From positions 1 through 13,189 of IMG/VR virus record IMGVR_UViG_3300035498_001035: DNA of 13,189 nucleotides, one strand, 5' to 3'. Shown here piece by piece: positions 9,072-9,902 of the stretch. This DNA is from a virus. A model generated the notes under the pieces. The model saw nothing but the letters and a program-made list of their open reading frames with translations, was not told the origin of the DNA and made no database searches. The number at the start of each line of letters is the position of its first letter. Within the stretch, counting starts at the first letter, position 1. A program made the translations under genes and the position numbers.

Positions 9072-9902
9072 TTAAATATCCACTAATTTTTCTATATATT
9101 CTCTTCCTTCATCTTTAAAAATAGGTATGTTGTTATCAATAGTCCATTGAGGTCTCATAATAGGAGTTATTCCTCTAATTAACAAAACTCGTTCTTGATT
9201 TTTTGGTGTAATTTTAATGCAACAACTTCCACGTTTCTTATAAACAGGAAAATTATCCCAAGTTACGCCCATTTCATATAACATATCTTTTATTTCTCTA
9301 CATGATTTATTTTGAAGTTCTTTATGACTAAAATTAGCATGTCCTACCATCTGAATACTATTTCTTATAGCATCGAGTTGCCGCCAATAAATAAGATTAG
9401 TAACCTCTTCTTTTGGAATATTAAAACATCTAGCATCAAACATCGCACTTTTATTTATTGCATTATTTAAGATTGTTAAATAATGTTTTGTATATTCACC
9501 TATAAAGGGCTTATCATATATATTAATATAATTTGTAGCTATTCTACTAAAATTTTGATTAAAAGCAAGAGTAGCCATAGATGCAGTAATACTACTTATT
9601 TTTTGAACCTTACCATCAAACCATATATCAGAATCAAGATTCTGATAATCCAAGAGAATAAGAGTAATCTCATCTGACTGTGTGTAGCCTAAAACACAGC
9701 CCTGGATATTTTTACAAAGGTACATCATAGTTTCTTGCATAGCTTGCATTAAAATGGGGTCGAAAGGTTTTTGAAAGCCTCGAGTAAAAGTATGAAAAGC
9801 TCTGCCATCAACTCTAATGGCTACAGGTATTCGTTTTATTAATTTAGACTCTTTAACTTGTTCATAATTTTTCATTCTTTTAGCTAAATCAGATGTATCC
9901 AT
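9072..9902 (-). CDS. tRNA-His guanylyltransferase (Thg1) family / Thg1-like protein (3'-5' nucleotidyltransferase).
   Basis: 276 aa. It aligns with Thg1 along its length: RIPVAIRVDGRAFHTFTRGFQKPFD (IVVRLDGKNFHKF...KPND); LGYTQSDEITLIL (IAYGQSDEYSFVF); QKISSITASMATLAF (SKFMTHVASQFASSY); FDARCFNIPKEEVTNLIYWRQLDAIRNSI ([30 protein letters not shown]). ATG at 9902, RBS AAAGGA. Confidence 0.85.
   Translation of the reverse strand: MDTSDLAKRMKNYEQVKESKLIKRIPVAIRVDGRAFHTFTRGFQKPFDPILMQAMQETMMYLCKNIQGCVLGYTQSDEITLILLDYQNLDSDIWFDGKVQKISSITASMATLAFNQNFSRIATNYINIYDKPFIGEYTKHYLTILNNAINKSAMFDARCFNIPKEEVTNLIYWRQLDAIRNSIQMVGHANFSHKELQNKSCREIKDMLYEMGVTWDNFPVYKKRGSCCIKITPKNQERVLLIRGITPIMRPQWTIDNNIPIFKDEGREYIEKLVDI

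Follow-up and report, generated by a model that had tools for sequence, protein, structure and literature searches.

A phage-borne Thg1-like protein with an intact active site, encoded in an array of predicted RNA-end-processing genes

We analysed a stretch of viral DNA of 13,189 nucleotides (nt) (IMG/VR record IMGVR_UViG_3300035498_001035, positions 1 to 13,189), hereafter called the window, which carries an open reading frame (ORF) for a Thg1-like protein (TLP). The family membership of this protein, its intact active site, its fold, its gene order, and a recurrent but non-obligate co-location with genes for RNA-end enzymes are established here. We lean towards the view that the phage TLP rebuilds tRNA 5′ ends as one tool of a modular RNA-end repair kit that usually includes a ligase. 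The evidence for this view, and the alternatives to it, are presented below.

Results

Identity of the Thg1-like protein

The ORF product matched the Pfam family Thg1 (PF04446) with an E-value of 2.3e-32 and 112.1 bits (cut-off 29.2) over profile positions 2-130 of 130, and PHROG 4717, ‘tRNA-His guanylyltransferase’, with an E-value of 1.2e-87. An initial annotation, made from the sequence alone, had recognised a clear member of the Thg1/TLP family by its conserved blocks. These blocks are present verbatim in the ORF (RVDGRAFHTFTRGFQKPFD, QSDEIT and YWRQLD), and the two profile matches bear the assignment out. When solved structures were searched by sequence, the best match was the TLP of B. 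thuringiensis (BtTLP; 4kgk, E 1.3e-53) and the second was the archaeal TLP of Methanosarcina (5axk, E 4.5e-17), whereas the yeast, Candida and human Thg1 structures gave weaker matches (E 2e-7 to 3e-5). The HINNLYN motif is typical of eukaryote-type Thg1, and is used as a criterion to separate Thg1 from TLP. HINNLYN is absent from the window protein: the segment aligned to its position reads IRNSIQM, and the RNSIQM part is found in BtTLP as well. Judged by these comparisons, the window protein is a bacterial-type TLP and not a eukaryote-type Thg1, which answers the question of placement that the initial annotation had raised. BtTLP performs templated 5′-end repair of many tRNAs, makes no non-Watson-Crick addition, and was assayed on 5′-phosphorylated tRNA (PMC3701042). 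By homology, the window TLP would be expected to catalyse Watson-Crick-templated addition, with a preference for 5′-truncated tRNAs.

Catalytic residues and predicted fold

The BtTLP residues E12, R28, D30, D75, E76 and R131, whose roles have been described (PMC3701042), correspond to E14, R30, D32, D77, E78 and R158 of the window TLP. Because the first block of the HMMER alignment is ungapped, BtTLP numbering maps at +2 in that block; R131, in the second block, is offset by +27. Three carboxylates are conserved in the family, two of them metal-binding; they are D32, D77 and E78 here, aligned without gaps to BtTLP D30, D75 and E76. Their loss, which the initial annotation had considered fatal to its own proposal, is not the case. 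The residues of the activation step (yeast K44, S75 and N161) are present as K45, S76 and N181, and those of nucleotidyl transfer (yeast R27, K96 and R133; BtTLP E12, R28 and R131) as E14, R30, K101 and R158. Furthermore, E14, R30, D32, S76, D77, E78, K101, R158 and N181 are invariant in an alignment of 13 sequences, which comprises the window TLP and 12 homologues, mostly from cultured phages (hosts: Fusobacterium, Bacillus, Staphylococcus, Vibrio, Aeromonas, Mycobacterium, Caulobacter, Serratia and Burkholderia). By homology, the window ORF is predicted to encode a catalytically competent TLP. A degenerate or inactive copy was also considered and ruled out, every catalytic residue being intact.

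An AlphaFold2 model of the window TLP was obtained with a pLDDT of 84.5 and a pTM of 0.84. In a Foldseek search with this model, the BtTLP structures 4kgm and 4kgk were the best matches (E 7e-23; TM 0.83, normalised to the target; 34-38% identity), and all 32 of the 32 matches with E ≤ 0.001 were Thg1/TLP chains. Hence BtTLP is the closest solved relative both in sequence and in fold. The window protein differs from it in being phage-encoded and known here from sequence and model, in its C-terminal length, and in an insertion of ~25-35 residues (about 118-152), which AlphaFold2 predicts with confidence to extend a helical hairpin. This insertion is shared by the closest metagenomic relatives and in part by phage Fnu1, but is missing from BtTLP and from the TLPs of Bacillus and Staphylococcus phages.

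The neighbourhood of Thg1 in related loci

A search of metagenomes for relatives of the TLP returned at least 8000 candidates, all with E ≤ 1e-10. We fetched 80 of 257 IMG/VR loci with relatives; together with the window and further loci, and after dereplication at 90% Thg1 identity, these gave 49 lineages, whose flanks (±10 kb of Thg1) were searched with iterated profiles. A kinase was found within 10 kb of Thg1 in 14 of the 49 lineages, a phosphoesterase of the aq_1665 type in 12, an RlaP-like nucleotidyltransferase in 10, an RNA ligase likewise in 10, and a lambda-phosphatase-like enzyme in 9. At least one such repair-type gene (kinase, ligase, phosphoesterase or nucleotidyltransferase) was present at this distance in 21/49 lineages. 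YqeY was near Thg1 in four lineages out of 49, and in all four it was 0.6-2 kb upstream. The associations with repair genes are spread across the Thg1 tree, including distant branches, and extend to cultured phages: downstream of Thg1, mycobacteriophage Bombitas encodes a polynucleotide kinase at a distance of 0.6 kb, and Serratia jumbo phage BF an RlaP-like nucleotidyltransferase at 3 kb. The genes adjacent to Thg1 differ in almost all lineages. The association of Thg1 with RNA-repair genes is real and recurrent, but loose; the co-location of Thg1, pnk and phosphoesterase genes that the initial annotation wished to see in relatives thus occurs sometimes, and not as a fixed arrangement.

Judged from a reading of their sequences, other genes that recur near Thg1 in relatives resemble those for NAMPT, Prs, NadE, PARP, SPFH/flotillin and LemA (the last also annotated as such in one relative). 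Look-alikes of NAMPT, ribose-phosphate pyrophosphokinase and NAD synthetase were read ≤5 kb upstream of Thg1 (L062, L076, L077, L068 and others), and a WGR-PARP-like gene adjoins Thg1 in other lineages (e.g., L061:5934-7169). These genes would suggest an NAD-salvage or anti-defence neighbourhood, and they suggest that the Thg1 region in relatives is a variable accessory region related to conflict.

Kinases and RNA ligases near Thg1

An RNA ligase of the Rnl1 type (PF09511) or Rnl2 type (PF09414) was present in the same 10-kb flank in 9 of the 14 kinase-bearing lineages. In three of the five kinase lineages that had no ligase, Thg1 and the kinase are 7.6 to 10.3 kb apart, and the kinase is close to where the available DNA ends. 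Upstream of Thg1, locus L090 (207-2405) encodes a 732-amino acid (aa) fusion of kinase, metallophosphoesterase and Rnl1, and locus L091 (1-1119) an Rnl2-type ligase together with a 297-aa kinase whose C-terminal region reads as HD-like. The two loci are from metagenome strains whose Thg1 protein is identical (P0117), and the two repair cassettes are alternatives at the same upstream site. In locus L051, an Rnl2-type ligase stands between Thg1 and a triad of zinc-ribbon, kinase and phosphoesterase genes. The closest cultured phage, Fusobacterium phage FNU3, has a Thg1 that is 50% identical to the window TLP, and encodes a 738-aa kinase-phosphoesterase-Rnl1 protein (FNU3_41) beside a tRNA cluster, 11.6 kb from Thg1.

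For the phage that carries the window, ~30 kb of DNA were read: the window, a 20.8-kb portion of a nearly identical contig (L007, described below), and a further 8.7 kb from an 11.3-kb sister contig found by an exact-match scan (L092); ~107 kb of the genome were outside. Searches for Rnl1 and Rnl2 ligases, with RtcB outside their scope, were negative for the window and L007 (tblastn with four Rnl1- and Rnl2-type sequences from related phages, and profiles built from these) and for L092 (profiles only). An ATP-dependent DNA ligase (PF01068) in L092 was the only ligase seen in this DNA. The initial annotation had proposed that the rest of the genome be searched for an RNA ligase and for tRNA genes, and in the ~30 kb covered neither was found. 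It had also proposed a ligase-independent design. The comparative evidence (9/14 kinase-bearing lineages and FNU3 with an RNA ligase, and the kinase-phosphoesterase-Rnl1 fusions) argues against such a design, while leaving room for one in this phage genome.

The gene array in the window

The neighbours that the initial annotation had named (a Pnk-type kinase, two metallophosphoesterases, a Pol-beta nucleotidyltransferase and YqeY) are all real, and form one array on the same strand (Table 1). Two tight sub-clusters can be distinguished: YqeY, two small ORFs and the TLP gene overlap or are 3 nt apart, and the zinc-ribbon, kinase and phosphoesterase genes, whose order recurs in L051, are separated by gaps of 1-18 nt. 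The sole strong terminator-like site on the minus strand is at 2938-2908, downstream of the array. A promoter scan of the window was uninformative (96 sites versus 90 expected).

Table 1. Genes of the array around the TLP gene, listed by position in the window.
Position	Strand	Product	Size	Matches and remarks
4895..5428	minus	Metallophosphoesterase, Aquifex aq_1665 / MJ0936 type	177 aa	Metallophos 9e-8; PHROG 547, 6e-50; PDB 1xm7, 2.4e-6
5447..5968	minus	Pnk-family P-loop kinase, kinase domain only	173 aa	AAA_33 2.7e-23; PHROG 505 ‘polynucleotide kinase’, 5.7e-25; predicted RNA 5′-OH kinase
5970..6371	minus	Zinc-ribbon protein	133 aa	PHROG 1257, 2e-13; weak L33-like match; stop abuts kinase start
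6471..8992	minus	Major-vault-protein-like		Between TLP and kinase genes; Pfam MVP_shoulder 1.5e-22; split by 1-nt deletion
9072..9902	minus	Thg1-like protein (TLP)	276 aa	ATG start; predicted templated 3′-5′ nucleotidyltransferase
9906..10157	minus	Small coiled-coil protein	83 aa	Stop 3 nt before TLP start; homologues in 10 related loci
10157..10540	minus	Small protein, hydrophobic N-terminal stretch	127 aa	Overlaps YqeY by 8 nt and the 83-aa ORF by 1 nt
10533..10997	minus	YqeY / GatB-tail-like	154 aa	Pfam YqeY 1.4e-11, 45 bits (cut-off 27); PHROG 1460; GatE C-terminal region
11321..12370	minus	Pol-beta-fold nucleotidyltransferase, RlaP-related	349 aa	PHROG 388; Pfam Polbeta below cut-off
12527..13189	minus	Lambda-phosphatase / NinI-like metallophosphoesterase		5′ end past the window; PHROG 246

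Among solved structures, the kinase matched L-seryl-tRNA(Sec) kinase (PSTK; 2e-7), the kinase of C. thermocellum Pnkp (5e-7) and T4 Pnk (1.4e-6). A Walker A motif (GCPGAGKST) and an RD motif can be read in its sequence. It belongs to the Pnk/Pnkp/PSTK clade; the PSTK match is as good as that to Pnkp, so that the RNA 5′-OH substrate is given here as predicted. The two metallophosphoesterases could possibly remove 3′-phosphates or 2′,3′-cyclic phosphates. A full-length copy of the lambda-phosphatase-like enzyme (L007:6652-7383) is available from the IMG/VR contig IMGVR_UViG_3300035501_000484 (L007; 139,648 bp), part of which is 98.5% identical to the window; this copy has 243 aa, a Metallophos match of 6e-8, and the motifs DLHG, GDxxDRG and GNHE.

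The Pol-beta-fold nucleotidyltransferase is under the threshold for PF10127 (RlaP), and a homologue (L070:436-1302; 32% identity, E 9e-24) reaches 25.1 bits against a cut-off of 23. The C-terminal domain of the window protein (residues ~261-342) is a CodY-like winged helix (E 6.5e-7 to CodY structures). A DNA-binding domain of the CodY type on an RlaP-related nucleotidyltransferase is an odd pairing for a presumed RNA-end enzyme. YqeY may be a tRNA-binding partner of the TLP. No significant Pfam match was obtained for the 83-aa coiled-coil protein, and no family match for the 127-aa protein.

Immediately downstream of the TLP gene, between it and the kinase gene, is a gene whose product resembles the major vault protein (MVP). 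Its homologue in L007 (10911-13433) is intact and encodes 840 aa, collinear with rat and human MVP (E 1e-12), with shoulder and vault-repeat domains. The gene lacks one A near 8266 in the window and in three metagenome contigs (L003, L004 and L005, the last of them partial), and is thereby split into ORFs of 251 and 524 aa. A 2023 preprint (10.1101/2023.11.10.566534) gave the first report of MVPs in viruses. In some relatives, SPFH, prohibitin or flotillin genes are found near Thg1 in place of MVP. We have no evidence that the MVP-like gene belongs to the repair set.

The carrier phage

With a GC content of 22-35%, the window is rich in AT, and its long ORFs are almost all on the minus strand. 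The carrier is a tailed, AT-rich phage of roughly 140 kb, with the TLP in its early/accessory gene arm. Downstream of the array are holin-like genes, an amidase endolysin, RNase H, gyrase subunits, the ATP-dependent DNA ligase and ThyX. Just upstream of it are tail-fibre-like genes and, among them, a reverse transcriptase (L007:2723-3964, minus strand; RVT_1, YMDD motif), which may be part of a diversity-generating retroelement. Window positions 177-2241, with an HNH homing-endonuclease-like ORF (1305-2135), stand where the otherwise 98.5% identical L007 has ~1.1 kb of different sequence; this has the appearance of an insertion polymorphism of a mobile endonuclease, situated between the RNase H and gyrase B genes. 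A megablast of the window against phages gave no match, and the carrier therefore has no close cultured relative.

Thg1 genes are common among phages: they were present in 164 of 50,697 phage records, all of them from large phages (88 kb or more), and have a dedicated PHROG family. When such a gene was noted in 2013, it was called ‘highly unusual’ (PMC3601020). That the window gene could be a host-derived housekeeping gene was considered and ruled out, since all close homologues examined are in phage-like contexts.

Discussion

In the modular repair that we favour, the TLP would activate a 5′-monophosphate RNA end with ATP or GTP, and would then add nucleotides in the 3′-5′ direction with the 3′ strand of the tRNA acceptor stem as the Watson-Crick template, so that tRNAs shorn of 5′ nucleotides would be restored. 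The Pnk-type kinase would turn a 5′-OH into the 5′-phosphate that TLPs need. Possibly, the two phosphoesterases clear 3′-phosphates or 2′,3′-cyclic phosphates, the RlaP-related nucleotidyltransferase rebuilds 3′ ends, and YqeY binds tRNA. We infer a tRNA substrate for the TLP, its enzymatic cooperation with the kinase, and a purpose in counter-defence. Of the repair proposal in the initial annotation, we retain an intact, phage-borne TLP in a co-directional array with RNA-end enzymes, and a kinase that could provide the 5′-phosphate; the linkage to the kinase is loose, and independence of a ligase is not retained.

Several observations weigh against a role of the TLP in such repair. In the window, the kinase gene is 3.1 kb from that of the TLP, beyond the MVP-like gene, and the TLP is coupled to YqeY and two small genes instead. 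In 28 of the 49 lineages, the profile search detected none of the repair-type genes at a distance of up to 10 kb from Thg1, and six of eight diverse cultured phages, whose loci are mostly annotated as ‘hypothetical protein’ and were rescanned with our own profiles, had no recognisable repair gene ≤5 kb from Thg1. Because none is near it in these cases, Thg1 does not depend on repair-gene neighbours. The enrichment of kinases near Thg1 is about twofold at most relative to random placement, a rough estimate in which the lineages are not independent. The window, L007 and L092 contain no tRNA gene. Furthermore, a search of the literature found no known defence nuclease that leaves 5′-truncated tRNA, and no experimental study of a phage TLP. 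We favour one tool of a wider kit over the dedicated pathway with the TLP as its core that was initially proposed.

The TLP might be functionally unrelated to its neighbours, that is, an independent accessory gene of a variable region that acts alone, on another RNA or in general RNA quality control, while the kinase and phosphoesterases serve a distant ligase. The changing neighbours of Thg1, the alternative cassettes beside an identical Thg1 in L090 and L091, and the MVP-like gene interposed in the window would fit such independence. Yet this gene set reappears close to Thg1 in remote parts of the tree and also in unrelated phages, and an association of Thg1 with polynucleotide kinase is also reported in cellular bacteria (PMC2904730). 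We regard independence as unlikely. A self-contained pathway without a ligase, in which the kinase phosphorylates the 5′-OH left by a host nuclease, the TLP refills the end, a phosphoesterase cleans the 3′ end, and the RlaP-like enzyme serves the 3′ end, appears improbable. In its favour, the needed healing activities are all encoded within 8.5 kb on one strand, the ~30 kb read held only the DNA ligase, a kinase and an RlaP-like gene are near Thg1 without a ligase ≤10 kb away in L008 and L012, and immunity directed at tRNA acceptor ends exists (PMC12851939, PMC12916289). Against it are the ligases that accompany most kinase-bearing lineages (in three of the five exceptions the kinase is close to an end of the available DNA), the ligase between Thg1 and the triad in L051, the joining of kinase, phosphoesterase and Rnl1 ligase in single polypeptides of relatives, and the ~107 kb of the carrier genome outside the ligase search. 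Moreover, the acceptor-end nucleases known so far attack the CCA tail or the 3′ strand, that is to say the template of a TLP and not its substrate: papers of 2026 describe the cutting of CCA tails by Cas12a3 and the nicking of acceptor stems by retron Eco2, both on the 3′ side (PMC12851939, PMC12916289). A bolder variant, which we consider very doubtful, is that the phage remakes both strands of the tRNA acceptor end without a ligase, with the TLP and a YqeY adaptor at the 5′ end, the RlaP-like enzyme at the 3′ end, and the kinase and phosphoesterases preparing the termini, against some host nuclease, so far undescribed, by which tRNA 5′ ends or acceptor stems would be trimmed.

It is also conceivable, though rather improbable, that the TLP has no role in repair and matures the phage’s own tRNA-His by adding the -1 nucleotide. 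Large genomes are common to all Thg1-bearing phages, and among those examined several have tRNA genes. The tRNA-His of FNU3 (L103:38498-38569, minus strand) has A73, an encoded CCA, and a G-1 that is unable to pair with A73, and those at L067:5557-5630 and L079:2893-2966 have an 8-bp acceptor stem with U-1:A73, and are 4.5-7 kb upstream of YqeY-Thg1. In L067 and L079, the tRNA-His gene directly abuts a preceding tRNA-Pro. The bacterial G-1:C73 pair normally makes RNase P keep the -1 nucleotide, and all three genes lack this pair, having A73 instead of C73. However, the non-Watson-Crick addition G-1:A73 is not among the reactions of TLPs (PMC3701042), the type to which the window protein belongs; a broad tRNA specificity is reported for BtTLP. 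In L067 the paired U-1 is already encoded. A tRNA-His gene is ≤10 kb from Thg1 in only 2/49 lineages, most of which have no tRNA at all at that distance, and there is none in the ~30 kb read of the carrier phage. A blastn search with the FNU3 tRNA-His for other Thg1 phages matched only Fusobacterium phages.

The modular repair that we favour has precedents in the literature. Anantharaman, Iyer and Aravind reported in 2010 that polynucleotide kinase is the most persistent neighbour of bacterial Thg1 and would supply its 5′-phosphate substrate, and that RNA ligases at times co-occur with it (PMC2904730). A possible repair role of phage Thg1 against host defences, with its coupling to the kinase, was published in the same work and repeated in 2021 (PMC7824862), when Iyer et al. 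listed Thg1 among the RNA-repair enzymes of jumbo phages. The window resembles these bacterial neighbourhoods in having near Thg1 a Pnk-family kinase that would give the 5′-phosphate; it differs from them in the 3.1-kb distance, in the separate sub-clusters, and in that no MACRO-domain gene was seen in the window. The phage genes of PHROG 4717 (e.g., Bacillus phage Bc431v3 gp143 and Fusobacterium phage Fnu1 gp147) are 39-50% identical to the window TLP, and are likewise early or accessory genes of large phages. Most of these phages, in contrast to the window, do not join Thg1, YqeY, the RlaP-like gene, the kinase and two phosphoesterases in one array. With T4 Pnkp/Rnl1 and bacterial Pnkp/Hen1, the window shares a Pnk-type kinase and a phosphoesterase that could in principle heal RNA ends, and, with the phage system, the logic of counter-defence. 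Unlike in those systems, no RNA ligase was seen in the DNA read, and a TLP would rebuild nucleotides and seal no nick; the window phosphoesterases are metallophosphoesterases, whereas T4 has an acyl-phosphatase-type domain. The kinase-to-Thg1 scheme and the anti-defence role are therefore not new, and the window gene is an ordinary further case, a matter of annotation rather than discovery.

The repair activity of Thg1-like proteins in vitro was found 15 years ago, and proof of their biological role in bacteria and phages is still awaited. A widespread and abundant phage clade that retains an intact TLP next to end-healing enzymes is a convenient system in which to ask whether 3′-5′ polymerisation serves as counter-defence.

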